Positions 3,001 through 20,800 of a stretch of DNA of 64,000 bases are shown in pieces (the stretch's first letter is position 1; the number at the start of each line of letters is the position of its first letter). The DNA comes from an uncultured Planctomycetaceae bacterium (GTDB lineage: Bacteria; Planctomycetota; Planctomycetia; Planctomycetales; Planctomycetaceae). The notes beneath the pieces are model-generated. The model ran no database searches. It saw nothing but the letters and a program-made list of their open reading frames with translations, and was not told where the DNA came from. The stretch is from the NCBI GenBank assembly GCA_963815195.1, contig CAWFGE010000018.1, positions 1 through 64,000 on the forward strand, written 5' to 3'. The position numbers were made by a program, and so were the translations under genes.

Positions 3001-5495
3001 TGCTCGACATCTCGATGCGGCGTATATGTGCTCAACGCCTGGCGGCGTCATTGGAATCGGCACACCAGACCGGCATCGGCAGCTCTATGCGAGTTGTGCT
3101 CAACGCCTGGCGGCGTCATTGGAATCGGCACGCGAATCAGTGACGTCGTGCCGCCGACATCCCTGCGTGTGCTCAACGCCTGGCGGCGTCATTGGAATCG
3201 GCACGTGCAGGCCGTGATCGCGCCGTCGATGCGCGGACGAGTGCTCAACGCCTGGCGGCGTCATTGGAATCGGCACCGAGGTCGGCGCCGGCTGCATAAC
3301 GCGCGTCACATGGTGCTCAACGCCTGGCGGCGTCATTGGAATCGGCACCGGTCAGCGCCGGATACATCAAGCGAACTGGCGACAGTGCTCAACGCCTGGC
3401 GGCGTCATTGGAATCGGCACGCAATCCGCAGCGGTCCGAGCGCTCGGATTTCGCATGTGCTCAACGCCTGGCGGCGTCATTGGAATCGGCACGCCGCTGT
3501 CGATCGACGCATGCTGACGATCCGAAGTGCTCAACGCCTGGCGGCGTCATTGGAATCGGCACCGTCCGATCGCCGTCGACACCGCGGACCGCGTTGGTGC
3601 TCAACGCCTGGCGGCGTCATTGGAATCGGCACGTGGCGATCGCGACGAGCATCGCGTCCGCTCGGATGGGTGCTCAACGCCTGGCGGCGTCATTGGAATC
3701 GGCACCACGCGATCGCCGAGTCGAGGACCGTCCAGTCGAACGAGTGCTCAACGCCTGGCGGCGTCATTGGAATCGGCACGTCGACGGCGCTCGGCATCGA
3801 CTGACAATCGCACGATGTGCTCAACGCCTGGCGGCGTCATTGGAATCGGCACCGCCGACTCGCGATCGGTCGCGACGATCGCGCGGTGCTCAACGCCTGG
3901 CGGCGTCATTGGAATCGGCACGTCGGCGCAGTCCGCGACGGGATCGGCCACGTACATGTGCTCAACGCCTGGCGGCGTCATTGGAATCGGCACTCCGAAC
4001 TGCCGGCGGCGACTCGCGGCGGCGATCGGTGCTCAACGCCTGGCGGCGTCATTGGAATCGGCACGCGGTCCGACGTCGACCGCTCCAACAGACTACGATG
4101 TGCTCAACGCCTGGCGGCGTCATTGGAATCGGCACCACTGCGCCGGCTACGATCGACGAGCGAGATCCGATGTGCTCAACGCCTGGCGGCGTCATTGGAA
4201 TCGGCACTCGTGCGCCGAAACGCCGTCGCCACCAGCATGACTCGGGTGCTCAACGCCTGGCGGCGTCATTGGAATCGGCACGACGATCGCGGCGGCCACG
4301 ATCACGGCCGCGTCCAGTGCTCAACGCCTGGCGGCGTCATTGGAATCGGCACGACTTCGCCGTCGCAATACCGTGTGCAGCGGTCCAGCTGTGCTCAACG
4401 CCTGGCGGCGTCATTGGAATCGGCACGAGATCAGCCACGTCGTTATGGAAAGTCGCTCATGTGCTCAACGCCTGGCGGCGTCATTGGAATCGGCACGAGG
4501 TCTGAGTCGGCCGCATTTTGTTTTGAGGCATGTGCTCAACGCCTGGCGGCGTCATTGGAATCGGCACTGCCCGCGGCGAGGCGAGCGGCTTGATCCACGA
4601 GTGCTCAACGCCTGGCGGCGTCATTGGAATCGGCACGGCCTGGAGCAGGTGTCGCGCAGGCGACTGATCACGGTGCTCAACGCCTGGCGGCGTCATTGGA
4701 ATCGGCACCTGCGAGCAGGCGGTCGATCGCGGGCTGCCCTGCGCGTGCTCAACGCCTGGCGGCGTCATTGGAATCGGCACCGTCGTCTCGCTCGTCGGCG
4801 TTCGAGGCGTGTCGTGGTGCTCAACGCCTGGCGGCGTCATTGGAATCGGCACTCCGCGACGCGTGTCGCGTCGCGGAACCTCGATCTGTGCTCAACGCCT
4901 GGCGGCGTCATTGGAATCGGCACCCATGTCCGTGGACTCGCGAATCGCGCGATCGCCATGTGCTCAACGCCTGGCGGCGTCATTGGAATCGGCACCCTCC
5001 GTGACGTCGCACCGAGGCCGCGCATCGCGTGTGCTCAACGCCTGGCGGCGTCATTGGAATCGGCACAACAGCCGCGTCGCGATGCTCGAGCGTCATCGAG
5101 CAGTGCTCAACGCCTGGCGGCGTCATTGGAATCGGCACGCGTCGTGCATCGATCGACGCTCGCATCGAGTTCGATGTGCTCAACGCCTGGCGGCGTCATT
5201 GGAATCGGCACGCCGCAGTCGTGGCGATCGGCTCGATCGTGGTGTGCTCAACGCCTGGCGGCGTCATTGGAATCGGCACCTGCTGGATCGCCGATCGTCG
5301 CCAGTCGCGCTCGATGTGCTCAACGCCTGGCGGCGTCATTGGAATCGGCACACGCCGGCGCTCGTCGACGGTAACGTCGTCGACTCAGGTGCTCAACGCC
5401 TGGCGGCGTCATTGGAATCGGCACCGAACGTCCGGCCTAGCTCGACGTCGACTGGCGACGTGCTCAACGCCTGGCGGCGTCATTGGAATCGGCAC
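22..5495 (-). CRISPR. CRISPR array, 36-bp repeat (plus strand GTGCTCAACGCCTGGCGGCGTCATTGGAATCGGCAC), ~77 repeats / 76 spacers
   Basis: 76 identical repeats from 92 to 5495 at ~72-bp period (manual count), plus a degenerate terminal copy at 22-57. Minus-strand transcription is inferred from the degenerate distal repeat, the leader next to cas2, and the ACGCC/GGCGT hairpin followed by the 8-nt handle TTGAGCAC. Confidence 0.99.
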
Positions 5496-5715
5496 CGCAT
5501 GCCTTCCAACCCTTGTAACCGACAATGGTTACGATTGCAAGAATCACGCACCACAACAAACCGTTCAACCGTTCAATTTGTTGGTGTCGTATCAAATCGA
5601 ATTGCCAAAGAGCAATTTTATAAATCTTGGTCATATCGCGGTTTGAGTCCTCTGGCAAGAGCATCATGCAATCAAAAAATGAAGGTTTAGCGCCAACTTC
5701 GCGTGACCTTTGCAC
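5496..5715 (-). promoter_or_regulatory. CRISPR leader with a GTAACC-N6-GGTTAC inverted repeat (5515-5532) and a boxA-like site (5600-5614)
   Basis: AT-richer non-coding stretch between the first repeat and cas2; minus strand reads TGCTCTTTGGCAATT. Confidence 0.8.
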
Positions 5716-5813
5716 TTAAAGAAAGTGTGGCCGATCTTCCAGCGACCACCGGAAAGTGCATGATTCATCGCTCGGCAGCCCAGCCCTCGGCTTCCGCGAT
5801 AACGCTGCGTGAA

Positions 5814-6104
5814 TCAAACGATGCGAAATGATGGCGGGTCGTCGGCCCAATCGCAATGGTCGGGTGTGGAATGAATTGGCACCTTCGACGCACACTGGGC
5901 ACAAAGCGGCATCACCAGCAGATTGTCTTCGTCCGCAATGATTTCGGCAAGCTCCCAACGCAACTTTTCCAACGTAGGACGATCCAACCGGCAACGAAAG
6001 ATGCTGTATTGCACTCGGGTGCCATAGGCTTCCAGCTTTTTGGCCACGCGACGCAACCGCTTGGGATCGCGGATGTCGTAGGCAATGAGATGCCACATCT
6101 TCAT
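5814..6104 (-). CDS. cas2: CRISPR-associated endonuclease Cas2
   Basis: MKMWHLIAYDIRDPKRLRRVAKKLEAYGTRVQYSIFRC is the Cas2 signature; GAGGA RBS upstream of ATG 6104. Confidence 0.96.
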   Translation of the reverse strand: MKMWHLIAYDIRDPKRLRRVAKKLEAYGTRVQYSIFRCRLDRPTLEKLRWELAEIIADEDNLLVMPLCAQCASKVPIHSTPDHCDWADDPPSFRIV

Positions 6105-6151
6105 TTGGCCGTCCTCGTATGCCAGCTTCGAAGCCCGGCGAATGGTGGCTG

Positions 6152-7830
6152 TCACCGAATTCGCATGCGCCGAACAGACCCGGTGCGCCGCTCCATTCCT
6201 TCTCAAGCAGTCGGGCTTCCAATTCGACGAGTCGGGCATAGCTCATCGCCTTGCCAGTGTGGGGGTGCTTGGCGGGTTCCTCAAGTCGCGATTCAAAAAT
6301 GCCGATGGCCTTCTTCCGTCCCGGTCCAGACAACCACACATGAGCGCCAGCCCGCGTGAAATCTTCGACGGGGTTCCATTGCATGCGATTGAGGCTCCCG
6401 ATCAACGGCATATCGACCAGCAACACGCGGAAGATTTCCATCAAATCCAGCACCAACGGTGGCGCGGCCGAACGCGGCTGATGAAAATACCCCAGTGCCG
6501 GCTCCAGTCCCACGGCAAGTAAAGTGCGGTGCACCAGTCCGAAAAGCATCTGATAACAATAACTGAGCACAGCGTTGAATGCATCTTTCGGCGGATGTTT
6601 GCTTCGGCCCGTGGGATGCAGGTCGTTCGGAACGCGATCGGCGAGCATCGCCGGAACGGCGGCAAAGTATGCCTTGGCAGCCATCCCTTCCAGTCCGCGA
6701 AGCGTATCCAACGAGGCGGCCGAATTCAGTTTACGCAAACACTCGCGAATGCGTTCCAACTCCGCAATGACCTTATTGCGGGCGGAGTCATTTCCGCGAG
6801 TCGCCCGCAGCAGATATTTCAACTGGATTTCGACCTTCGCGTGCACGGTGCGGCGGGCCAGTTCGAAGCAAACCGCTTCGTCGGTGAGGGCCTTGTATTG
6901 ACGGATTCGCTGCTGGACTCGGCCGGGAGACGCCGAAGTGCCCGCCACAAACCGGCCGCCGAACGACATCCACTGCACTTGCACGCCGTGGTAGGAACAA
7001 AGCTGCAAAGCCTGGGTCGTGATTTGCCCAGAACCGTGAATGACAACCGCGTCGATTTGAGCGATCGGCACCGTTTGGCGATCGTCTTCAACCTTGACCA
7101 CCAGCGTCTCGCTGCTTTTGGTGATATAGGCTTTGCGGTCGGTGACATAAAGCGTTTGCTTCTGGCGATCGGCGGGAAGCGGGACGACCAAGGGCTTTTT
7201 AGCCGGTGATGGGACGTCGGCTTCTGGTTTTGGCAGGCGTTCTTCTTCGGGCAGACAAACAGGGGCCAACGAGCACGATTTGCAAAGACGTTCATTCTCG
7301 GTGACCGGCGGCCGCTGGGTGGTCTCGCGCAATTCGCGGCCCCGGTGAATCGCCTTTCGGAGGTCTTCGCGAGCCTCGTCATCGATCTCAACAAATGCCG
7401 TGGCATTGTCGGCGTGGTAACGAATGCGGGCCTGGCGGACTGGTTCGCCGAGTTCCTCCTCAGCGAGAACGGCATACGCGATGGCTTGAATGCGGTCGCT
7501 GGGCCAAGGCAGCGGCTGTTTGTCATCACCCCGCCGGCAGCGGCCCTTCTTGTGCTCGTAAGCGACCCAAGCCCCATCGCGCTTGCGAATCGCATCGATC
7601 TTGCCCTTCAGCCCCCACGTTTCGCTGGCGACATCAAGCGAACGCAGTTCCGGAGTTTCATCATCCAACGGCACCCGCTCGACATGCAGCCGCCGACCGG
7701 CAAAGATGAATTCGTTTGGGCATTGAATGTCCTCCACTTCTGTGAGATAAAACAATCTCTCGCAATATAGTAAGTCGCGAATCCCAATGACGCGGAGCGG
7801 CGGCTCCTGGGTTGTGGAAGGCGATGGCAT
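6152..7830 (-). CDS. cas1: Cas4-Cas1 fusion (MYXAN type); 1-nt frameshift near the 3' end
   Basis: N-terminal Cas4 (YCERLFY, GKIDAI, EHKKG, CKSCSLAPVC) followed by Cas1 (GLEGMAAKAYF, NAVLSYCY, GYFHQP, DLMEIFR). Restoring one base at ~6170 gives a C-terminus LFxRMRIR* ending at TGA 6152-6154. Confidence 0.95.
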
Positions 7831-7841
7831 AATCACTCCTA

Positions 7842-8615
7842 TTACTTGGGTTGCGTGCTAGCTGGAATATTGACCCAAGCGCCTGGCGGTGGCTGGGAAG
7901 AAATCGACTTCGTTTGTGGCGCGTATAACGCGGACCGTGTTTTGGAAAGTTCCGCGCGGTCAATTTCCTCGGTTAGCCGCGTGACGCGGTCTTGCATACC
8001 GATTTGCGTTTCAGCAGCCACCCGTTCGTACCAAATCACTGGCTGCGGTTCGGGAAGTAGTTCAGCGCGGTCTAACAGGAAGGCGTTGTCACCAAGAAAA
8101 GGCACACCATAACGATTGGTATTCAGTTCGCCATGAAGTCCCTGTCGAACGCGATCCGACAAACCTTCGTCGCCTTCCCAGGCGATAACCGCGCGGACGT
8201 CCATCAGCAACTCGCGGCGAACCGGGGTGATGTTGTACTTATTGCCTTTACAGCTCTCGGCCCGCAATTTGCCCGACGAGCCAACCGGATAGTTGTGGAG
8301 TTGCTGGTAAAGAGATTGTGGTTTGGGATAAATCTCCGATTCACTGAGAGGTACGATTCGGCCTCCACCCTTGAGCCGAAACATCGGCAATCCCAACGCC
8401 AGCCGAACCGTCGGCAAATCACTTCGGGTGAGCGACGCGGGCGTTTTCCCATCGTGGGCGTCGTCCTCTTCCCGCAGCCGGGTTTCGATGCAGGCAAAAT
8501 TGAGTAGCAGCCCGTAGGCCGCAGACGGCGTCAAGAAAGATGCCGTTGGGCGATACCATCCCGCGGTGAATGTGCGGAACGCGGCAAATGGGGCTTCGAT
8601 GTAGAGAAACTCCAC
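7842..8615 (-). CDS. cas5: Cas5 (DevS/Cmx5 type)
   Basis: LYIEAPFAAFR...TPSAAYGLLLN N-terminal motif, PFLGDN near the C-terminus; lies between cas7 and cas1. Confidence 0.92.
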   Translation of the reverse strand: MEFLYIEAPFAAFRTFTAGWYRPTASFLTPSAAYGLLLNFACIETRLREEDDAHDGKTPASLTRSDLPTVRLALGLPMFRLKGGGRIVPLSESEIYPKPQSLYQQLHNYPVGSSGKLRAESCKGNKYNITPVRRELLMDVRAVIAWEGDEGLSDRVRQGLHGELNTNRYGVPFLGDNAFLLDRAELLPEPQPVIWYERVAAETQIGMQDRVTRLTEEIDRAELSKTRSALYAPQTKSISSQPPPGAWVNIPASTQPK

Positions 8616-8618
8616 GGC

Positions 8619-9593
8619 CTATACCTCCCCACTCTGCTCGGCCAGGGCGCGGTCCGTGATTGTCGCGAGCAATCGGCGCGGGTTGCGGTCCACAGTAACG
8701 CCTTTCTTTTTGAGTGCATCGAGTTCTTCCGGCGTGAGCCCCCGTTTGACGATTTCACCGCCGACGTAAAACTCGCCGGCTTGGTCGTCGAAGTCTCCCG
8801 CGAGAATGTCAAGCAGGATTTCGGGAGTCTTTTCATCCGAACGGAAGCAATAGGTTTGATAACCGGCGACGAGTGAATTCGTCAACCGGGCGAAGATCGA
8901 AGCCGGAGCCATCTCGAAGTAGCTGCGGGCATGATTTCCGGCCACGCCGTTGAGTTCGCCGATCGCTTTCATCAGTTGCCGCGTCCATTCGGAGTGGTGG
9001 CTGCACTCCGCGAAGTTGAGTGCAAATGGATATTGAAACGCCGAAACAACCGTTTCGCGGTGCAGGAGCGCGGAGGACGCCTTCGCATCACCACCGCCCG
9101 GCTTCCACGGATTGCCTTCCGCAAATTGTGGGCTTTGGGTAAATATTGTGTTGTATCGATACGGCTTCAGCGCTTTTGCAAGGTTCATTCGCAAGACGGA
9201 ATCGCGTTTCATCGGGAAATCCGCTCCCTTTTCCTTACGTAGTTTATCAATCTCCTTACCCTTAACCGCCAAAAGGTAACCGAAGAAAAAGTCATCTACG
9301 AAGGCATTCGGATCAGGATATTCCGAATAACGAACAGCCAATTGTTGCTTAGCTTCGTCGCCACCGTCCGACTTGCCCTTTCCGGAAACCGGGTGGATGC
9401 GTATACGGTTTGTCGGCAGGCCATATGCCGCAAGTATTTCGCGGAGAGCGTTGCGCATGCTTTCCGGGGAGAAGATGGGATAATCGAATCGTCCATCCGT
9501 GACCTTTTGAATTACGGTCCGGTTGAGTTCCGATTCGCCGCGGTAATTCGCAGACGGCGCAGGATAGGTGAGAACAGTTGCAAATAAATTCAT
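8619..9593 (-). CDS. cas7: Cas7 (DevR/Cst2 type)
   Basis: MNLFATVLTYPAPSANYRGE, SPESMRNALRE, DDFFFGYL, VAGNHARSYFE. Confidence 0.93.
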   Translation of the reverse strand: MNLFATVLTYPAPSANYRGESELNRTVIQKVTDGRFDYPIFSPESMRNALREILAAYGLPTNRIRIHPVSGKGKSDGGDEAKQQLAVRYSEYPDPNAFVDDFFFGYLLAVKGKEIDKLRKEKGADFPMKRDSVLRMNLAKALKPYRYNTIFTQSPQFAEGNPWKPGGGDAKASSALLHRETVVSAFQYPFALNFAECSHHSEWTRQLMKAIGELNGVAGNHARSYFEMAPASIFARLTNSLVAGYQTYCFRSDEKTPEILLDILAGDFDDQAGEFYVGGEIVKRGLTPEELDALKKKGVTVDRNPRRLLATITDRALAEQSGEV

Positions 9594-9609
9594 GATTGAG
9601 GTCCGTTTA

Positions 9610-11283
9610 TCAAGAGTTAGCGGAGAGAGCCATGAGGGTGAGTGTTTTGACGTCCTCGGTGCGGTGTAAGAGGGCGTGACCGATTGACTTGAACTGCTCG
9701 ACGCTAAGAAACTGCTTCGCCGAAAACAGGGTTTGAGAGAAGTGGTCCACGAACGCTTGGTCGCGCCGCGAGCGAAATTCCAAAAACAGCGTTTCAGCGA
9801 CCGAACGCCGGTCGTCCTTGAATCCTTTTGGAACTCTTTCCCATTTGATCTTGTCACCCTCTTTGAAGTTGTCGATTTCGATTCCTGACTTCTTTTCCGC
9901 CCGTTCGGTGACGTACTGGCGGACCAATCGATGGATGATGTCCATCAACTTCGTGTCCTCGTCGGCGTGTTCGATTTCATCGGGATCGGTCATGGGAAAG
10001 ATCTCCAGCTTGAGGTATTTCCGCACATCTGCCCAAAACCACGGCAGGTTGTTGGGAGAATCGTCGGAGTGGACAAACAGTTCATGAGGCCAATTGCCGA
10101 AGGCATCAGCAAATGGCGCATACCAAGGGGTATCGTTCAACAATCCACGCAGAAGTCCGCTCCGAAATAGAGGGTTGCCAAATGGAGGCTTCTGTCCCGG
10201 TGCGCCCACGATGGCAAGGTAGCGATTGAGCAAACCCGGACGCGGTACAATACGGCCTGTCGAGACCAATTTGATGTTCTTCGCGACCTTCACCATGTGG
10301 AAAAACTCGATGCCACTAACTGTATAGGCGGATTCCAAGTCGCCCGATTTTGCAGCGCTGAGTTGGGCAAGATGCTCAAGGAATGACAGCGCCCCCTCAG
10401 CGGGAACGTCGATCACGGATTCCGCTGGACGGTAACCGCGCATGTCGCCTTTGAGACTGCCCAACACTCGCCTGTAGGCAGCCATGAACTGCGGGAGATT
10501 GGCGACCTCGGGAACGGCCAGCACATAGCCAACAAATTCCGAATTGCCGTCCGGCTCAATGCATTGCGGCACAAATACTAACGAAGTCAACATCCAAAAG
10601 TGCAGCAGAATTATCTGTTCGACGCGTCCTTTGTAGGGGATGTTCTCTGCTGTCGACGCTTGAGCGCCGAGCCAAAGTGAGCCCGCGACGGCACTTGTTT
10701 TGAACTGATTCTTCGCCCCGGCCTTCTCGGCATCCACGAGGTCTTTCCACACAGCAGGCCCCTCCTTGCAGGTTTTTCCGGCGGCGCATTGCTCGAATGG
10801 CTGACGGCTTTGCGGATTGCCGCGGGGGATTTCCCAAAGCATATTTCGCCACAATTTGAGCCATTCCTCTTTTCCATCGACGATGTACTGGCCGAGAAAA
10901 CGGCCAGAAGGTTGAATCACGGAATACACATACTTTTCGACGACCTTTCGCTTTCCTTTGACTTCTTCCGATATTTTGATCGTATCGACGAGTTCCGCAC
11001 CTTTCCACTTCGACTTCACCTGCACATTGACCGGTTCAGCGGCGTAGAGATCATCGAACATCGCATTCACAGTCTTTGGGGTAAACGTAACCCGCACTTT
11101 TGTGTGAGGTTCCAGCTCGTCGAACTCGAAGGTGGGAGTGGTTAAGCCACGGTTCCGCATGGACTCAATCTGCAGCAACAGACCTGCCAAACCCGCTTTG
11201 TGTTGAGCGCTTGGGAGATCGAACAAGTCATAGGTGATCGTCACCGTCGAAGGATCAGATTTCTTTGCTTTCGTTTTAGCCAT
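9610..11283 (-). CDS. cas8: Type I-MYXAN large subunit Cmx8 (Cas8)
   Basis: YDLFDLPSAQHKAGLAGLLL, WLKLWRNMLWEIPRG, SLWLGAQA, LLHFW; helical C-terminal Cas11-like part. Confidence 0.88.
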   Translation of the reverse strand: MAKTKAKKSDPSTVTITYDLFDLPSAQHKAGLAGLLLQIESMRNRGLTTPTFEFDELEPHTKVRVTFTPKTVNAMFDDLYAAEPVNVQVKSKWKGAELVDTIKISEEVKGKRKVVEKYVYSVIQPSGRFLGQYIVDGKEEWLKLWRNMLWEIPRGNPQSRQPFEQCAAGKTCKEGPAVWKDLVDAEKAGAKNQFKTSAVAGSLWLGAQASTAENIPYKGRVEQIILLHFWMLTSLVFVPQCIEPDGNSEFVGYVLAVPEVANLPQFMAAYRRVLGSLKGDMRGYRPAESVIDVPAEGALSFLEHLAQLSAAKSGDLESAYTVSGIEFFHMVKVAKNIKLVSTGRIVPRPGLLNRYLAIVGAPGQKPPFGNPLFRSGLLRGLLNDTPWYAPFADAFGNWPHELFVHSDDSPNNLPWFWADVRKYLKLEIFPMTDPDEIEHADEDTKLMDIIHRLVRQYVTERAEKKSGIEIDNFKEGDKIKWERVPKGFKDDRRSVAETLFLEFRSRRDQAFVDHFSQTLFSAKQFLSVEQFKSIGHALLHRTEDVKTLTLMALSANS

Positions 11284-13717
11284 TCGATTGTCGCCATGTG
11301 TTAAGAGGTTCGTCACAGTATCCAATTGCGGAGTGATAGTGGCCTGGTTCGGCTATACCAAGGTATGCAGGCAACTTCTTGTGCAGCGGGTTGTCTTTGT
11401 CGCGATACCGCGCATGTCGGCGAGGAATTGGAATAATCAGCCCTGGCCGAGTCGTGGCGTCACCGCTGATGTAAGCCCCGATATTGTCATCGTCCGGTAG
11501 CACACACGGTCGATTGTAGTCCGTCCCCTCCCGAAATGCCTCGCCGTCGTCGCCACGGCTTCCGACGGCGAACGCACCACTTATGAGAAATTGAGAATCT
11601 GGATCACCCTCTAGGGCCGGAACCGGTATGGAGGGGGAGTTCATGATTTCGTCCACTCTCGCCTGTGAGAGGTGGTCATATCCCTGCGCTTGCTGAACGA
11701 ACTCGTTTAAGCCGGCGAGGTCGTTGGTGGAATAGGGGCGATTTGCCTCTTCAGCGGAGTTACCGTCCGGTGTGTAAATCAAAACTTCGCCGGACTCAGT
11801 CAATGGCCGTGCACGGCGCTCGCGATTACAGCGACCCATGCGTTGCACGAACGCTGTCACTGGACAATGTTCGGTGACCAGTAAATCGACGTCGATGTCG
11901 AGACTCATCTCACAAACTTGCGTGGTGATTCCCAGTGCCGCTTGCTGGTTTCCCGGAGCCGGCTTCTTGAGGTGGTTCATTGTCTCCGCATGACGATCAA
12001 CGCGGTCGATGAGCCGAAAGCGGCTGTGATAACAAACGAGAGCGTGTCCTTCGCTAGTTGTCAACTGGTTCCCCGTGTCAGCCGCCGGATCGAAATGTGG
12101 CGCAAAGTCCTTCAGGATTTCGTGAGTCCGGCGTACCTGGTTGACAACCCAAAGCACCCGTTTGCCTTGACGAAGCGATTCCCAAACGCGCCCCGTTGCT
12201 TCGGCTCGATTGACGACGCGCGTCACGCGGTATCGAGGTAATTCAGCGATTTTCAGAAGGTCGTCGGGCCAATCGGGCGACGGCGATAGCTTGCATTCGT
12301 CAACGAGTTCTTTGCGGCGATTGGAGGGAAGCGTGGCCGTCATGCACAAGACTGGCACATCGAAGTTCTTAAGGAAACCCTTCAAGGCGGCAAACATATT
12401 GCGGTCGTAGCTGTGCACTTCGTCGATCACCACAATCGAGTCGGCCAGCACCGGCAGCATGCACATTGGGCTATAGGCGTATTGCATGAATGCGAGGAAT
12501 TGATCAACCGTGGCGGAAAATGCACGCCCCGGCCAGTATCCAAGCGAGAACAATCGTTGCTCGACTTCGTAGTTTCGATTGCCTCGGTCGTCGTTGGAGT
12601 CTTCAGGAGGATTCGCGAACATGCCATCGAGGTCAAATGCGCTTGTGCCGTGCATCAGCTTGGCATCGGCTTCGGGAGCCCAACTGACATAGTCTTTAAA
12701 GCCCTCACGTGCGGTGGCTCTCGTCGGATAGAGGAACAACACGTGTCGCGCCGGTCGTCGCACCAACTGAGCCGCAATCCACCGCCATGCCGCTAGCGTC
12801 TTGCCGCTACCGCAAGGTGCGAGGAGCAGTGCTCGAGCCGGTAAATGATCGCAGCCGAGTTGAAAGTCATTCCAGTCTTCCCACTTTCCTGCCGCCTTCA
12901 ATTCGCCGACACGTGGTTTGATGATGTCGTTCGCGATCCTTTCTTTGGTGAGCGGCACCGCCCGCGTCACGTTTTCACGGATCCAATCGATCACCCGGTG
13001 CCCCTGGCGCACCAGTCCCGAACCGGCGGCGTCTGCTGCAATGAGGGAAGCCCGAACGCCTACCAGTAGCCGAGAACGCCTGGAATCCGTCGCCAATTCA
13101 CTTTGGAGTCTCATCAGAGCGCCCCTGATGTTGTCTTGGTGATCATCGACATTGTTGGGATTGTTTCCAAATCTCCAAGTTTCCGGAAACATAGACGTGT
13201 CGAATTGAGGAAGGCCGACCTTAAGGCCGACGTCCGCCACCGCCTGGAAGTGGTCGTTGACAATCAAGCGAAAAATCTTTGCACCATCGGGCAACCTCCG
13301 GGCCAAGTCGGAAGACCGGCTACCCGCTTTCAAATGGTGCGTGAGAACGACGGACAACAAAAGGGGCACATCATAGCCGGCATGTTGCAGGGGTTGCGTG
13401 ACGCTCGGCAAACCAATCAAGAGCGTGCTGAGGTGTTCGTGGCGGATGGCTTGGGAACCCGTGCGGTGAAGCGCCGCTTGGAATGTGTTGTTCGCTTTAC
13501 CCCAATCGTGAAAGGCACACGATGCGAACAAATGGCGGCGGAATATCGGCCAAGTTTCTTCCGGCAATTGGAAGAATCGCAGCCATTGCGTTCCTAGGCG
13601 ACTCGGAGTCTTGTCTCCGAACAATTCCTGAGCAGCTTCAATCACATCGAGAGTGTGACCGAGAAGCGTCACAGGCTTCTGTCCCGCCTTCCGGCTTTTG
13701 GCGAGAATCTCATTCAT
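11276..13717 (-). CDS. cas3: Cas3 HD nuclease-helicase
   Basis: HDWGKAN HD domain, APCGSGKT Walker A, DEVH, MTAT, QRMGRCNR. Confidence 0.97.
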   Translation of the reverse strand: MNEILAKSRKAGQKPVTLLGHTLDVIEAAQELFGDKTPSRLGTQWLRFFQLPEETWPIFRRHLFASCAFHDWGKANNTFQAALHRTGSQAIRHEHLSTLLIGLPSVTQPLQHAGYDVPLLLSVVLTHHLKAGSRSSDLARRLPDGAKIFRLIVNDHFQAVADVGLKVGLPQFDTSMFPETWRFGNNPNNVDDHQDNIRGALMRLQSELATDSRRSRLLVGVRASLIAADAAGSGLVRQGHRVIDWIRENVTRAVPLTKERIANDIIKPRVGELKAAGKWEDWNDFQLGCDHLPARALLLAPCGSGKTLAAWRWIAAQLVRRPARHVLFLYPTRATAREGFKDYVSWAPEADAKLMHGTSAFDLDGMFANPPEDSNDDRGNRNYEVEQRLFSLGYWPGRAFSATVDQFLAFMQYAYSPMCMLPVLADSIVVIDEVHSYDRNMFAALKGFLKNFDVPVLCMTATLPSNRRKELVDECKLSPSPDWPDDLLKIAELPRYRVTRVVNRAEATGRVWESLRQGKRVLWVVNQVRRTHEILKDFAPHFDPAADTGNQLTTSEGHALVCYHSRFRLIDRVDRHAETMNHLKKPAPGNQQAALGITTQVCEMSLDIDVDLLVTEHCPVTAFVQRMGRCNRERRARPLTESGEVLIYTPDGNSAEEANRPYSTNDLAGLNEFVQQAQGYDHLSQARVDEIMNSPSIPVPALEGDPDSQFLISGAFAVGSRGDDGEAFREGTDYNRPCVLPDDDNIGAYISGDATTRPGLIIPIPRRHARYRDKDNPLHKKLPAYLGIAEPGHYHSAIGYCDEPLNTWRQSNG

Positions 13718-14376
13718 AACGTGTTCCTCGATTCGCTTGGATCAAACGGCACAAATACGCCGCAGCCCATGTGTCTTCGGCCGCCTAATCCTTGTTCCTG
13801 CAGGGTCAGCGACTCCTCCGCGGTGAGGGCCTCGATGATGACCTCGTAGCCCACGATGCTCGCGCCTTTGATGTCCATCGCCCGGCGTTGGGGTTCACCC
13901 TGTTTGGGGCCGGTGGGAATCGGCGGGATGCCCAGCACGGTTTCCTCCGAACTCCCCATCTCGCCGAGTTGTTTGCGGGCCGCGGCCAGAAAGATTTCCG
14001 GGGTCAGTTCCTCGGCCTTAACGTCCTTGACCTTGATGCAGACCAATCGGCTTCGCAGCGTCGTCGCCGGCGTGAGGGCAAAAACCTGAGGCACACCCAC
14101 GCGAAGGCTGGTCTCGCCCACGTGCAACGATTGGCCCGCGAGCGGCAAGAGTTCTGCGATGCGATCAGCCGGCGTACGGATCGTGAGTTTCGACCAGGGC
14201 GTGAGCACCATTTGATCTTCGCCGACTTTGCGGCCGCGGACCGGATGAATTGCAAAGCCGTTCTCCTGGTGCACGGCCGGCAACACCCGCGAGACGGCCC
14301 CAAACAAGGCATACCCGTGGTCCGAGGCCATCGGTTTCTGTGCCGTCACCGCGAAGGCTAAATCAACATGGGACAT
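13714..14376 (-). CDS. cas6: Cas6 (MYXAN/Cmx6 type)
   Basis: VDLAF...DHGYALFGAVS and C-terminal Gly-rich loop GLGGRRHMGCGVF. Confidence 0.95.
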   Translation of the reverse strand: MSHVDLAFAVTAQKPMASDHGYALFGAVSRVLPAVHQENGFAIHPVRGRKVGEDQMVLTPWSKLTIRTPADRIAELLPLAGQSLHVGETSLRVGVPQVFALTPATTLRSRLVCIKVKDVKAEELTPEIFLAAARKQLGEMGSSEETVLGIPPIPTGPKQGEPQRRAMDIKGASIVGYEVIIEALTAEESLTLQEQGLGGRRHMGCGVFVPFDPSESRNTL

Positions 14377-14386
14377 TTTTGGATTC

Positions 14387-14914
14387 CTAATTCTCGGCTG
14401 CTCTGGCTTTCAACAAGTGACAAATCGACTGCCAGTCTCGACCGACTGTGCGCTCGCTGACTTTGAGTCGATTGGCGATTTCGCGATTTGTCATCCCCCG
14501 CTTTTTCAAGATGACAACTTTCTTTTGGCGAAGCGGTAGCATGCGGCAGAGCGAGTTTAATCGCCAACGCGCCGAGGTGTTCTTTGAAGGGACAAGATAG
14601 ACCTTTTCAAGCATTTCCTGATTCACGAGTTGTGCTTCACGTCCCTGTTGAACCGAATTTCGACGCGCCATCGAATAGAGTTTTCGCTTGGCAACGAATA
14701 AGATAAAACGGTAGATGTCATCTGTCTTTGCGGATGCAAGAATGCGAGACGCACTTTCGCTGTTGGCAACGTTGAGGTAAATGGAAGCGAGCAATTCATC
14801 AGCATCACCAAGTTGGCACGCGCGCTGCAGATATTGTGCTTTCTTGGTCAAAAGGAATAGCCGAATGGCATTGGCTACGTGGTTCCGAACATTTTCGTTC
14901 CAAGAAGTGGGCAT
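14387..14914 (-). CDS. ECF-sigma-like / sigma-70 region 4 HTH protein (175 aa)
   Basis: AGGAGA RBS and ATG at 14914; C-terminal LPLRQKKVVILKKRGMTNREIANRLKVSERTVGRDW resembles region 4; stop is 10 nt before cas6. Confidence 0.7.
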   Translation of the reverse strand: MPTSWNENVRNHVANAIRLFLLTKKAQYLQRACQLGDADELLASIYLNVANSESASRILASAKTDDIYRFILFVAKRKLYSMARRNSVQQGREAQLVNQEMLEKVYLVPSKNTSARWRLNSLCRMLPLRQKKVVILKKRGMTNREIANRLKVSERTVGRDWQSICHLLKARAAEN

Positions 14915-14955
14915 TTGGAGTCTCCTTCTGCGTTTTTCAGCGGGGTTGCTGATCG

Positions 14956-14978
14956 AAGCACTTGCTGCTACCATAATA
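14956..14978 (-). promoter_or_regulatory. Putative cas operon -10 box (TATTAT) overlapping an ATG PAM and a 16-nt protospacer for the mini-array spacer
   Basis: Minus strand reads TATTATG-GTAGCAGCAAGTGCTT; 15/16 identity to the 5' end of spacer 15077-15110. Confidence 0.75.
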
Positions 14979-15040
14979 CATCGCAGTTGGATCGAGGGAA
15001 GTGACATAGAAATTGACCGAAATTTCTTTCGATCCGCGAT

Positions 15041-15146
15041 GTATTCGCTGTAGAGACGCCTCCGGGCGTTGAGCACGTAGCTGCAAGTGCTTGCTGTAGT
15101 TCGAGTTGCAGCCAAACGTAACCAGACGCCGTTAGGCGAAAAGAGA
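15041..15146 (+). ncRNA. crRNA-like regulatory mini-array (pseudo-repeat, 34-nt spacer, pseudo-repeat); CreR/CreA-like
   Basis: 15041-15076 matches the last 22 nt of the transcribed repeat at 20/22. 15111-15146 keeps GACGCCGnnAGGCG at the same register. Confidence 0.85.
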
Positions 15147-15162
15147 CGAGGCATTTCATTTC

Positions 15163-16164
15163 TCACACATCCGCCTCCAGTTTTTCGTGGTTTTCCAGGA
15201 TGGCCAAGCACTCGTCCCGGAGTTCCGTTCGTAAGTCGTCGGGTTCCAATACGACGGCGTGCTTGCCGAAGGATTGGATAAACGACTTAAGCTCCACGAA
15301 GCTGGCGACTTCCACTTCGAAGAGGATTGAGCCGTCTTTTTGCGGCGTGAGCTTCTGGCTGGGATGCCATTCGTATTCCTGAAGGAACCGAGCGACGGGC
15401 CGGCCGAAGCGGACAACCGCTCTCCGCTTGGGGCCGCCGTCCAGATAAACGCCGAAAGCATCCGCGAAGTATGCATCCAGATCGAAATGCTTGGGTTCGT
15501 TGAAGGGCGGGCCCGAGTTATCGACCTCGCTGATGCGGTTGATCTTGTAGTGCCGGATCTCGCGGTCGTCCGAGGAGAAGGCGACCAGGTACAGCGCCTG
15601 CTTGTGATACGCGATGCCGTACGGATGCACTTCGTGCTCGACCGGTTCCGTGGCCCGGAGGGATTGGTATAGAATGATGGTGATCTTGCGATCTTCGATG
15701 GCGACCATCAGGTCGTCGATGATTTCGGCGTGCTCCGCGTAGTCGGAATGGCCGAATCGCGAGCGGTACATGATGCGCGCCAGTTTCTCCAGGTACTCAA
15801 GTGCCACGTCTCCAAATGATGCGCGGATTTTTTCGAACGCCGATTGCGAGCCCTCCCAGAACACCGTTCCCGCGAGAGGCCCAAGGAATTCTCGACCCAG
15901 ATAAAGGGCAGCCGCTTCTTCCAGCGTAAAATGCCGTGCCGGGATGGAGGTGGCGTTATCGATTCGCCAGCGCTGGCGAAGATGAGCTTCTTTTTCCGGT
16001 TCGGCCAGAAAGCCGACCAATCGCAATTGGTCCAAGTCCCGGCGGATTGTTTTCAGAGACACGCCGAACTCCTCCGCCAGTTCGGTGACTGTGGCACCGT
16101 TCCGCCGCGCGGCCAGCGTGTTCAACAATCGCCATTGCCGGGTAATCTGTTTGGTGTCCGCCAT
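15163..16164 (-). CDS. wHTH-WYL-WCX transcriptional regulator (YafY/PafBC-like)
   Basis: N-terminal HTH (ELAEEFGVSLKTIRRDL), WYL domain (VHPYGIAYHKQALYLVAF...RHYKINRI) and WCX-like C-terminus. Confidence 0.92.
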   Translation of the reverse strand: MADTKQITRQWRLLNTLAARRNGATVTELAEEFGVSLKTIRRDLDQLRLVGFLAEPEKEAHLRQRWRIDNATSIPARHFTLEEAAALYLGREFLGPLAGTVFWEGSQSAFEKIRASFGDVALEYLEKLARIMYRSRFGHSDYAEHAEIIDDLMVAIEDRKITIILYQSLRATEPVEHEVHPYGIAYHKQALYLVAFSSDDREIRHYKINRISEVDNSGPPFNEPKHFDLDAYFADAFGVYLDGGPKRRAVVRFGRPVARFLQEYEWHPSQKLTPQKDGSILFEVEVASFVELKSFIQSFGKHAVVLEPDDLRTELRDECLAILENHEKLEADV

Positions 16165-17877: not shown

Positions 17878-20800
17878 TCAGCGTCGTCGCAACGCACGGC
17901 CAGTTAGGAGAGGTTCCAGTCCCACTTCCGGGAGACGAGAAAATACGACGTCCAGTTGTTCTGTCTCCTTTTGGCTGGCTTTTGTCGACAATTTTGCTGG
18001 GGTCTCGTTTAAAGAGCGAATACTTTTCTTCAGCTTACCTGCCGATTCGATTAAGAGACTCGCGTCATCCGTGGAAATCTGCCCCGTTTTCACAAGGACC
18101 TCGACACGATGGATGAACGCGTTCGTTTGTTTGTCGGCAGCATTTTCCCTCCCGCCAATAATGCTGGTCATTACGGCCCCCAACACTGACTTGAGAGAGA
18201 CGGCATCACCGTTCGTGAAACCACCTTGTGCGGCGAGAAGATTGACATCAGCCACGAGAACTCCAACCTGTTGTTCAGCCGAAAGGACGGTAAGCGTAAA
18301 CGTCTTGGCTGAGGAAGCGGCCCCCCCTTCATCAACTAGGATGACCTGTACGGTCGCCGTTCCGCTGGTGTCGGCCGCGATCTCGTAAGTCAAGGTGCCA
18401 CTGGCGGGATCAATGAATGGCTCCGCGGCAAACGCCAGATTTCCGGTTGTCCCAAGCACGGTGGTTTCGAAGGTGAGCGCCTGGCCTTGTTCATCGGTTG
18501 CGGTCGCGGGGCCGGGGGCGATGTTGGTCGCGAAGTTCGCGACGGTCTGCGGTCCCGCGTCTTCGGAGGAAGCCGGTGGATTGCCGGCAAGGGTGAACTC
18601 CGGGGGATCATTCACGGTGAGAACGGTAATTGTAAAGGTGTGAGTTGTCGATTCGGCCCCTTCTTCATCGCTCAGGATGACCGAAATGGTAGCCGTTCCG
18701 CTGGAGTCGGGCGTCGTGGAATAGGTCAACGTGCCCGACGGATCAATGAACGGAGCCGCGGCGAATGCGAGATTTCCGGTTGTCCCAAGCACGGTGGTTT
18801 CGAAGGTGAGCGTCTGGCCTTGTTCATCGGTTGCGGTTGCGGGGCCGGGGGCAATGTTGGTTGCGAAGTTCGCGACGGTCTGTGGTCCCGAGTCTTCTGT
18901 GGATACGGGTGGGTTGCCGGCAAGGGTGAATTCCGGGGGATCATTCACGGCGAGAACGGTAATTGTAAAGGTGCGGCAGTTGTCGATTCGGCACCTTCTT
19001 CGTCGCGCAGGATCACGGAAACGGTTGCCGTCCCGTTGGAGTTTGGCAACGTGGCATAGGTCAACGCGCCCGTGGACGGGTCAATGAACGGTTCCGCGGC
19101 GAACGCGAGATTTCCGGTTGTCCCAAGCACGGTGGTTACGAAGGTGAGCATCTGGCCTTGTTCATCGGTCGCGGTCGTGGGTCCGGGGGCGATGTTGGTT
19201 GCGAAGTTCGTCACGGTCTGCGGTCCCGAGTCCTCCATGGAATTCGGATCGCTTGCCAAGGTAAAGACAGGCGGATCGTTTACGGGGGTCACGTGGATAT
19301 TCACCGTCGCCGTGTCTCGTAACACGAAATCAACGAAGGTCTCCTTTCCGAAATCGATGTTGCCCTTAGGCAAGAGTCGTGCCCGGTCGAAGCTGAACGA
19401 CAACGGCTCCGTTTCGCCGGGGACCGTCACGATCTGCTGGAGCCTTTCATAATCCAATTCAAAGGAGATGATGTTCGTTCCATCGTCGTCGGTGTCGATC
19501 TCCAGCGAGACCACAACGACATTTTCCAGTATCCATTCCTCCAAAAGTCCGGAGGGCTCCAGTCGGCTGAGGGTCATCTGCGGAAGGATGGTTCCCGTGG
19601 CAACCGCATGGAACAGGCCGGGAGCGGATTTGCTCATCGGGGTGGTCAGGTGGAGACCACCCAGCTTTGGGTTCGACTGTCCGTTCGTGCCGATGATTGC
19701 ATTGCCCTCGATGAACCAGGAGCTCGCCTCGACGGCGATCTCACCGGAGGGCGTGACCAGGATCGTGGGTTCCTGTTCGCGGTCGAAGTCCTCTTCGCCG
19801 AAACCGGGGTCGGGGTCGATTGGCTCATTCTTTGTTTGGTCGTAACCGAACATCAAAACGTCCGCTTCGTCTTCACCGGTTTTGGGGGGAATCGTTACCT
19901 TCTGCTCGAGCGTTTTATAGTGTAATTCGAAGGAGATGAGTTGCGTGCCGTCGATTGCGGTGTCGACCTTCATTGAGACGATTTGCACTTCCATCAGTTG
20001 CCACTCCGTCAGCAGTCCCGAGGGCTCCCGCTGAAATAGAGTCATCTTTGACCCAAAAATTCCGGTGGCAACCGCGTAGAACAGGCCGGGTGAGGCTGCG
20101 CTTATCCGGGTACTCAAACGAAGATTCCCAAACTGCGGTTTCGAAGCACTATCGCCACTACTGCCGATCGTGGTGCTGTTTTGAAGGTCCCAGAAATTCC
20201 CCTCAACGGTGATCGCGCCCGAGTCGGCGACGAGCATCAAGGGAGTCTCGTCGGGGGGAAGATTCTTCACGCCAAAGCTGGGCTTGTCGCCAAACGTCTG
20301 CTCAATATTCCGGTCGTACCCGGTCGATATCGGATCGCCTGGGCCGGGCCGGGTCACGGTCTGCTCGATCGTTTCATAATCCAATTCAAAGGAGATGATA
20401 CTCGTACCGTCGATTTCGGTGTCGATATTCAGCGAGACCACAACGACATGTTCCAGCGTCCATTCCGTCAGTAGTCCAGACGGGTCCTGTTGACTGAGCG
20501 TCATCTGCGGGATGGGGGTTCCCGTGGCGAGAGCATAGAACAGGCCGGGCGAGGATTCCAGCATCCGGGTCGTCAGGTGGAAACGGCCAAACTGTGGGAA
20601 CGAGGGGTTGCCCCCGTCGATGTTTGTGTCCTTCTCGATGAACCAGGAGCTCTCCTCGATGGCGATCTCGCCGGAGGATGTGACCAGGATCGTGGAGACC
20701 TGTTCGTGGTCGAAGTCCTCTCCGCCGAAGCCGGCGTCGGAGCTCATTGGGGCATTCGTTGCTATGTTGTAATCGAACCTGAACTCCGTGCGAGCACCAA

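Follow-up and report, generated by a model that had tools for sequence, protein, structure and literature searches.

The window analysed here, a stretch of 64,000 nucleotides from an uncultured Planctomycetaceae bacterium (positions 1-64000 of contig C18 in a source genome of 8,865,410 bases, or 8.87 Mb, in 25 contigs), carries a type I-B Myxan (Cmx8) CRISPR-Cas system (CRISPR denoting clustered short palindromic repeats that are regularly interspaced) and, 127 nt upstream of the first gene of its cas operon, a mini-array in which two degenerate repeats surround one spacer-like sequence. As judged from comparison of sequences, the mini-array is very probably a Cascade-guiding, operon-repressing RNA of the CreR type. 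A sequence-only reading of this DNA had proposed Cascade-guided autorepression of the CreR/CreA type, and the comparison of related loci supports the proposal; repression, processing by Cas6 and the transcription start site (TSS) are what we infer beyond the comparison. The conservation and covariation of guide and target show selection for their pairing, not the sign of its effect.

The mini-array and its target

The mini-array lies on the strand opposite to that of the operon, and its parts and the target are listed below.

15041-15076, plus strand: psiR1, the first pseudo-repeat; 24/36 identical to the array repeat, with a degenerate 5' half
15077-15110, plus strand: psiS, the spacer-like guide; 34 nt, within the range of the real spacers
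15111-15146, plus strand: psiR2, the second pseudo-repeat; 16/36 identical to the array repeat, with a degenerate handle part
14956-14971, minus strand: the target, a protospacer-like site on the operon coding strand; a 16-nt match to psiS with one mismatch
14972-14974, minus strand: 5'-ATG-3', the protospacer-adjacent motif (PAM), read from the sequence
14973-14978, minus strand: TATTAT, a -10-like hexamer that overlaps the PAM, read from the sequence

The repeat of the main array is GTGCCGATTCCAATGACGCCGCCAGGCGTTGAGCAC in the sense of the CRISPR RNA (crRNA). The 3' 22 nt of psiR1 (15055-15076) are identical to it at 20 of 22 positions, with both differences in the hairpin loop, and this half retains the hairpin ACGCC-TCCG-GGCGT and the handle-producing end GTTGAGCAC. 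The repeat hairpin and full handle described in the sequence-only reading are therefore both present, and its coordinates and letters all proved correct when checked against the sequence. A search with the 22-mer that allowed up to three mismatches returned 77 matches, made up of the 76 exact repeats of the main array on the minus strand and psiR1 on the plus strand, where 0.00 were expected by chance (100 shuffles). The spacer-like sequence has a length that is found in 9/75 of the real spacers of the array, which range from 31 to 38 nt. It is followed, as the same reading had it, by a second pseudo-repeat that retains only the Cas6 hairpin, GACGCC-GTTA-GGCG, which is exactly in register. A DNA-run contig is identical to the window over 14996-15199, and no variation of the mini-array or target was found in four DNA runs (short contigs only). 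No relevant Rfam match was found in 14700-15400, and the leader of the main array and the intergenic region have no common k-mer of 9 or more.

An inverted-repeat search showed that nt 1-16 of psiS equal the minus-strand sequence from 14971 to 14956 except at nt 6, which gives 15 paired bases. The claimed 16-nt match with its sole mismatch at nt 6 and its ATG flank is thus confirmed. When nt 6 is left free, the 11-nt seed occurs four times on both strands of the whole genome: in the guide itself, in the target, which is the sole ATG-flanked occurrence, and at two sites flanked by CAT and GCG. The PAM starts 60 nt, and the target ends 41 nt, before the start codon at 14914.

None of the 115 spacers of this system has a convincing protospacer in the genome, so that the targets themselves, together with PMC11096372, are the basis on which the PAM is assigned. 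The available part of that paper describes the Myxan/Cmx8 Cascade of Synechocystis 6714, for which the best PAM is 5'-AYG, with ATG in the cryo-EM structure, and in which every sixth base is flipped out (a 5+1 periodicity). The facts that the sequence-only reading had cited, namely a flipped-out nt 6, an ATG PAM for Cmx8-type I-B systems and the short matches of CreA/CreR, hold in the available parts of PMC11096372 and 10.1101/2023.03.10.532045.

Guides, targets and register in related loci

Because the sigma-like protein that the operon's first gene encodes was found in 0/150 genomes of relatives, Cas6 was used as the bait. Through it, 38 related loci (37-60% identical) were fetched from species-representative genomes, mostly planctomycete metagenome-assembled genomes, with two from Oscillatoria; they put the window among Planctomycetota. 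The region near cas6 was searched for the hairpin-handle end GGCGTTGAGCAC with up to two substitutions. Many of the 38 loci proved to have a single repeat-like site close to cas6, and ten (L012, L018, L019, L020, L021, L024, L029, L040, L044 and L045) have the same design as the window; because the search was tuned to the repeat family of the window, 10/38 is a lower bound. Eight of these loci have guides that match at nt 1-5 and 7-11, and L012 and L018 match at 17/20 under a relaxed rule. All 12 of the 12 target sites found in the 11 loci (these ten and the window) are flanked by ATG. Three further loci (L013, L041 and L042) have just one repeat-like site each. Scans for closer relatives, one of metagenome-contig proteins and one of DNA for a handle-plus-seed pattern, both gave no matches.

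The guides are entirely different between lineages, except for one that is common to L019 and L024; with these two counted once, the window and the ten loci make up 10 lineages with different guides. An ATG-flanked seed site lies within 400 nt in the guide's own locus for 8/11 candidate guides, and a match was found for 0/108 non-cognate pairs of guide and locus. For 22,000 shuffled guides the rate of ATG-flanked seed matches within 400 nt was 4.5e-5 per locus. Covariation of spacer and target in related loci, which the sequence-only reading had named as a check, is borne out by these counts. A generic search for ATG-flanked 11-mers with any hairpin-preceded copy yielded 13 pairs in the 38 loci, of which six have a repeat-like handle and are the known cases; the other seven look like chance.

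These counts bear on the simplest alternative, in which the mini-array is the decayed remnant of an array, matches the target by chance and has no function. The degeneracy of its repeats (24/36 and 16/36 identical) would suit such a remnant. The chance rate of seed plus PAM speaks against it, as do the selective nature of the decay, which has kept the handle in psiR1 and the hairpin in psiR2, and the presence of the design in 10/38 loci with covarying guide/target pairs. We give this alternative almost no credence.

An alignment of the 11 planctomycete mini-arrays shows the same division into kept and free parts. In psiR1 the hairpin and GTTGAGCAC are conserved and the 5' half is variable, as is the spacer, and psiR2 conserves GA[CT]GCCGnnAGGCG, with the bases that follow being free. 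Hairpin cells are paired in 85.7% of cases, compared with at most 50.7% when the partners are slid. Two pairs have compensatory changes; these are seen in L021 and L040, where the psiR1 stem is kept through changes on both sides. In the close pair L019 and L024 (87% identical in the region), the block of PAM plus seed and guide nt 1-27 are invariant, and directly past the seed target the two sequences have diverged and differ by an indel.

The agreement of guide and target was then counted position by position across the 10 lineages, without L024 and the second site of L044. In these counts the only unbiased positions are nt 6 and those from nt 12 on, since matches at nt 1-11 were what most loci had been chosen by.

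Guide nt 1-5: matches in 10/10 each
Guide nt 6: 3/10, about chance
Guide nt 7-11: 10, 10, 9, 9 and 10 of 10
Guide nt 12: 1/10
Guide nt 13-17: 4, 5, 4, 6 and 4 of 10, or 23/50 cells
Guide nt 18: 2/10

Every sixth base matches at about the level of chance and the next five-base block is enriched, a pattern that is, on these counts, the 5+1 register of Cascade. The pairing available for an R-loop in the relatives is 10-17 bases.

A mechanism consistent with these observations can be proposed. The mini-array would be transcribed from the plus strand, away from the cas operon, and cut by Cas6 at both hairpins to give a crRNA-like RNA composed of the 5' handle from psiR1, the 34-nt guide and a 3' end formed by the hairpin of psiR2. 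Cascade (Cmx8-Cas7-Cas5-Cas6) would load this RNA and read the ATG PAM at 14974-14972, and guide nt 1-5 and 7-16 would pair with the template strand; of this step, the PAM and the pairing can be read in the sequence itself. By analogy with the published CreA/CreR systems, the R-loop would be too short to license Cas3, which would leave Cascade bound without cutting. Because the PAM begins so close to the start codon (60 nt here, and 25-108 nt from that of the next gene in the other loci), the target would lie at the -10/TSS region or in the first bases of the transcript. As the target is also 41 nt before the first start codon, bound Cascade at or next to the -10/TSS region would block initiation or early elongation of the operon that runs from the sigma-like gene through cas6, cas3, cmx8, cas7 and cas5 to cas4/1. 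The result would be a negative feedback in which the brake would be lifted once free Cascade became scarce, be it through competition by many crRNAs or through attack by anti-CRISPR proteins.

Besides the selection of most loci by nt 1-11, several results weigh against repression by the mini-array. A scan for the sigma-70 consensus over 14700-15400 on both strands found no promoter, with other promoter types lying outside the scan. The sequence-only reading had placed a TATTAT -10 box about 60 nt upstream of the first gene; the hexamer, its overlap with the PAM and the 60-nt distance stand, and a working -10 box does not follow from the scan. No convincing promoter was found for the mini-array either, and manual placement of -35 and -10 elements for either transcript is inconsistent between loci; in other loci the -10-like hexamers TAATAA, TAATAG and TATAGT occur inside the seed target. 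In the minimum-energy fold of the mini-array RNA the arms of psiR1 pair with those of psiR2 and the two local hairpins do not form; this fold does not stand out from the folds of shuffles (z = -1.06; the single-strand fold is uninformative). L037 and L039 have a clear psiR1-spacer-psiR2 arrangement, but no ATG-flanked target was found in them. Finally, the constant presence of a sigma-like gene after the target is not accounted for by plain autorepression of the cas genes.

Some of the related loci have further peculiarities. The cyanobacterial locus L044 has two exact 11-nt ATG-flanked seed sites (4594-4604 and 4974-4984) that are 380 nt apart, one of them 27 nt before cas6 and the other upstream of the mini-array, which in this locus is on the strand of cas6. 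L039 (3874-5663) has a truncated copy of the cas6 N-terminus upstream, the mini-array lies inside the region of that open reading frame (ORF), and a small helix-turn-helix (HTH) ORF runs in frame into cas6; the locus appears rearranged. Three loci contain two cas6 genes each (L029, 5001-9903; L018, 5001-10621; L037, 2386-8009), and their order is cas6, cas3, mini-array (on the opposite strand), target, small sigma-like ORF or ORFs, second cas6 and cmx8.

The operon, its sigma-like first gene and its regulators

The features around the mini-array are as follows.

14387-14914, minus strand: gene for a 175-aa protein resembling sigma factors of the extracytoplasmic function (ECF) type; first gene after the target, with the ribosome-binding site (RBS) AAGGAG and an ATG at 14914, and 10 nt upstream of cas6
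5716-14376, minus strand: cas operon; gene order toward the array cas6, cas3, cmx8, cas7, cas5, cas4-cas1, with the sigma-like gene ahead of cas6
13714-14376, minus strand: cas6/cmx6
11276-13717, minus strand: cas3, with both HD and helicase domains found
9610-11325, minus strand: cmx8 (cas8b)
8619-9857, minus strand: cas7
7842-8615, minus strand: cas5/cmx5
5716-7836, minus strand: cas4-cas1 fusion
5498-5715: AT-rich leader of the array
92-5497, minus strand: main CRISPR array, with 76 exact 36-nt repeats and minus-strand transcription
15163-16164, minus strand: HTH-WYL-WCX transcription regulator (Pfam WYL 4.4e-15, WCX 1.3e-15 and HTH domains), the 3' end of which is 17 nt from psiR2
15015-15034, minus strand: terminator-like hairpin between mini-array and target; weak, with one site found where chance gives 0.7

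The NCBIfam type I-MYXAN models for cmx8, cas6/cmx6, cas5/cmx5 and cas1 score above their curated cut-offs (TIGR04413, 446 bits with a cut-off of 150; TIGR02807, 180.7 with 98.85; TIGR02586, 148.9 with 111.5; TIGR03983, 412.7 with 358.05), and by these signature proteins the system is a type I-B Myxan (Cmx8) CRISPR-Cas system. The whole genome contains 122 exact repeats and 115 spacers; contigs C1 (15 repeats) and C3 (31 repeats) carry additional array pieces at their ends, built from the repeat of the main array. The main array itself reaches the edge of its contig (window 1-57), where a variant repeat at 22-57 deviates at the handle end. The assembly break probably falls inside one or more very long arrays.

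The gene that follows the target is the first of the operon, as the sequence-only reading had stated of it; it is a sigma-like gene and not a cas gene. Its 175-aa product matches Pfam Sigma70_ECF (2e-9; PF07638, 38 bits with a cut-off of 21.1) and Sigma70_r4_2 (7.7e-6; PF08281, 25.9 bits with a cut-off of 25.7), and several NCBIfam ECF models cover most of the protein below their cut-offs. Among 1.84 billion representative proteins the only full-length match is P0002 (172 aa, 57-58% identical), the other 33 matches covering the C-terminal HTH only, and a word-index search of 5.8 billion proteins gave one homolog. An AlphaFold2 (AF2) model of the protein has nine helices and a predicted local distance difference test (pLDDT) score of 76.4. 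A Foldseek search with this model found no match at E <= 0.001; the best of the weak rows (E 0.04-0.1) belong to ECF sigma factors at full length, including sigmaE, AlgU, SigL and CnrH, and the C-terminal domain of the model fits sigma-4 chains well.

The public gene call for this gene, P0001 (259 aa, 14387-15166, minus strand), begins 84 codons upstream of 14914 and spans the target, the inter-promoter region and the mini-array. Because P0002 starts at the downstream ATG, and because that is the ATG with the AAGGAG RBS in the window, P0001 is probably an over-extended call that conceals the element, for which 'hidden', the word used in the sequence-only reading, is apt.

A gene lies between the target and cas6 in 10/11 planctomycete mini-array loci, the window included, either as one ORF of 130-175 aa or as two of 84-96 aa; L021 is the locus without it. 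A Pfam signal for sigma-70 region 4 or ECF is present in four of those ten loci, and the genes in this position align at 14-21% identity only. What appears to be new is that the first gene under control of the guide would be not a cas gene but an orphan ECF-sigma-like gene, with a gene in the same position in 10/11 planctomycete loci. The gene is split into two adjacent or overlapping ORFs in L020 (4407-4998), L029 (8179-8720) and L018 (8262-8770); in L029 the second of these carries a region-4-like HTH. The split may be natural, as a two-part form of the gene, or be due to a frameshift. In loci that lack a mini-array, the small ORFs before cas6 gave no sigma or HTH match.

The recurrence of this gene raises the question of what the mini-array mainly silences. 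In a guard or payload module with a logic like that of CreTA, the chief task of the mini-array might be to silence the sigma-like gene for as long as Cascade stays intact, with repression of the cas genes as a side effect of the shared operon. On loss or inhibition of Cascade the sigma-like protein would redirect RNA polymerase and thereby boost the cas genes and array, set off a second response or arrest growth. The position of the gene in 10/11 loci, with a sigma signal in 4/10, favours this reading. So does the observation that mini-array and sigma-like gene move as a unit: this unit follows the WYL gene in the window and in L024, and it follows cas3 in L040, L029, L018 and L037, with a second cas6 behind the module in the last three. 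The 13 loci in which the WYL gene abuts cas6 have neither mini-array nor sigma-like gene, and protein toxins under Cascade control are described in the available part of 10.1101/2024.01.05.574328. Against it stand the orphan status of the sigma-like protein, with its one full-length homolog, and the low identity of the genes in its position. L021 and two cyanobacterial loci moreover have the target directly before cas6 and no such gene, so that the guide works, or evolved, without a sigma-like gene. The reading is also compatible with autorepression of the cas genes, and as an account of what the mini-array is mainly for we regard it as possible but rather unlikely. In the same tentative vein, the mini-array and sigma-like gene may form a mobile two-part module, a Cascade-repressed sigma factor that stays off under intact Cascade carrying the mini-array RNA and is made once Cascade is titrated or put out of action, by anti-CRISPRs for instance. 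If this were true, the sigma-like protein would reprogram RNA polymerase, either to amplify CRISPR expression or to provide an alarm or arrest in the second line, and the module would correspond to CreTA with a sigma protein. The long-known Cascade-dependent autorepression of the dev operon of Myxococcus xanthus, where devI occupies the same first-gene slot, would then also gain a possible mechanism based on a guide RNA.

A sigma-like gene linked to a guide that targets the DNA just upstream of that gene could also suggest the opposite sign, namely that Cascade with the mini-array RNA brings in the sigma-like protein together with RNA polymerase and starts transcription downstream of the R-loop, as dCas12f-sigmaE does. 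In that precedent the TSS is 46 bp downstream of the target-adjacent motif (TAM), and guides also act on expression of the system's own rpoE-dCas12f, according to the available part of PMC13472631. The sigma chain of the dCas12f-sigmaE complex, 9n9q_C, is among the weak fold matches of the AF2 model (rank 35, E = 0.44). The geometry argues against activation: the start of the PAM is 25, 30, 33 and 37 nt from the start codon in L020, L044, L045 and L029, and because of these distances of 25-37 nt the four loci have no room for a TSS some 46 bp downstream and an RBS. The system is furthermore a complete interference system, with an intact Cas3 (HD and helicase) and a large, active-looking array, not a nuclease-dead exapted effector, and three loci have no sigma-like gene. 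RNA-guided activation is very unlikely on these grounds.

The mini-array and target occupy a 248-nt gap that separates the sigma-like gene from the WYL regulator. The latter is the usual gene right before cas6 in this Myxan-type clade (tblastn, 35-47% identity), its homologs abut cas6 in 13/38 related loci, and it is probably a ligand-sensing regulator of the CRISPR system. In the 13 loci with this arrangement, the handle search found no repeat-like handle or mini-array before cas6. The hairpin at 15015-15034 could terminate read-through from the WYL gene.

The gap contains a second inverted repeat, 14975-14991 with 15029-15045 (17 nt, 82% complementary, with the core ATACATCGC and GCGATGTAT), which brackets the region between the target and psiR1, so that GCGATGTATT lies just upstream of both divergent units. 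The sequence CGATG directly before the target is also found in L019, L020, L024, L040 and L045. The inverted repeat or CGATG may be a promoter element or the site of a regulator.

With two regulators flanking the region, the matching segments 14956-14971 and 15077-15092 could themselves be a pair of protein operators bound by the WYL regulator or the sigma-like protein, with the repeat-like flank as array debris. The guide indeed includes an imperfect palindrome, part of the target is present in it as a direct copy, and the second inverted repeat is otherwise unaccounted for. A pair of operators fails to predict that the match should start right after a Cas6-type handle or that its partner should have a constant ATG flank. 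It likewise fails to predict that nt 6, 12 and 18 should be free, or that sequences specific to each locus should still match within it, and the 13 loci with the WYL gene abutting cas6 gave no repeat-like handle. We consider operators of this kind extremely unlikely, and the preferred reading of the pair remains that of a Cascade guide and its target.

Further into the window, a tandem repeat at 18318-19232 (period 333 nt, 2.7 copies, 86% matches) overlaps long ORFs on both strands.

Relation to known systems and significance

The closest parallels are the mini-CRISPRs of the CreR/CreA type. According to the available part of Liu et al. (10.1101/2023.03.10.532045), tests of these cover types I-B, I-E and V-A, and types I-C, I-D, I-F and I-U are described as having creA-like elements. 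The CreR guides described there are partial matches of 11-15 nt at cas promoters (15 nt in S. enterica), and the mini-CRISPRs have the asymmetry of a psiR1 that keeps the 5' handle and a psiR2 that keeps the 3' handle. The element in the window resembles CreR in being a degenerate two-repeat mini-array beside cas genes, with the 5'-handle bases in psiR1 and the 3' hairpin in psiR2, and in having a partial, PAM-proximal match at a PAM-flanked site. CreR autorepresses without cleavage, which is here proposed from sequence. The element in the window differs from CreR in belonging to a I-B Myxan/Cmx8 system, in its occurrence in Planctomycetota and in the sigma-like gene that directly follows the target and heads the cas operon.

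A survey of 24,757 complete genomes by Shmakov et al. (PMC10120712) describes, in the available text, type I-B mini-arrays that lie upstream of cas6 and whose PAM-flanked target is situated between mini-array and cas6, with partial matches of at least 10 bp from the seed. These mini-arrays, or cr-like RNAs, have the same layout as the one in the window, and that text describes no link to a sigma-like gene. A text search of such supplements of PMC10120712 as were available found no planctomycete or Myxococcus entries, and the available parts of the mini-array literature that was searched make no mention of Myxan/Cmx8, Planctomycetes or a sigma gene. Phage mimics of such regulatory RNAs are reported in the available part of 10.1101/2024.10.29.618823. 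CreTA, known in types I-B and I-F, has the same RNA design and logic of repression, with a non-cas gene directly under the guide; unlike in the window, CreT is a small toxic RNA or protein, whereas the gene here encodes a sigma-like HTH protein in the same operon as the cas genes.

Within the Myxan type itself, the Cmx8, Cas7 and Cas5 homologs of the M. xanthus dev operon repress their own promoter about tenfold, according to the available parts of PMC6061681 and 10.1101/2023.07.26.550624. The dev (DevTRS) system belongs to the same CRISPR-Cas subtype and has a small non-cas first gene, devI, in the place of the sigma-like gene here. It differs in that no guide RNA has been named for dev, the word 'crRNA' being absent from the available text of 10.1101/2023.07.26.550624. 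The dCas12f-sigmaE system, as far as the available part of PMC13472631 describes it, is similar in its link between an ECF-type sigma gene and a CRISPR-derived guide aimed upstream of its own operon. Unlike the system in the window, it activates transcription and uses a nuclease-dead single effector in place of a full type I system; in several of the loci the target is also too close to the start codon, and the window's system would not belong to that group.

If the mini-array acts as proposed, the known range of CreR-type self-regulation would grow by Planctomycetota and by the Myxan/Cmx8 branch of type I-B. The related loci supply a natural set of 10 independent guide/target pairs that displays the PAM and the 5+1 reading rule of Cascade, and they point to a recurring, previously undescribed link between such guides and small sigma-like genes. 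The window also illustrates how over-extended ORFs in public gene calls can conceal elements of this kind. For the dev promoter of M. xanthus, the findings suggest a mini-array-type guide as a candidate route by which Cascade subunits may repress their own operon.

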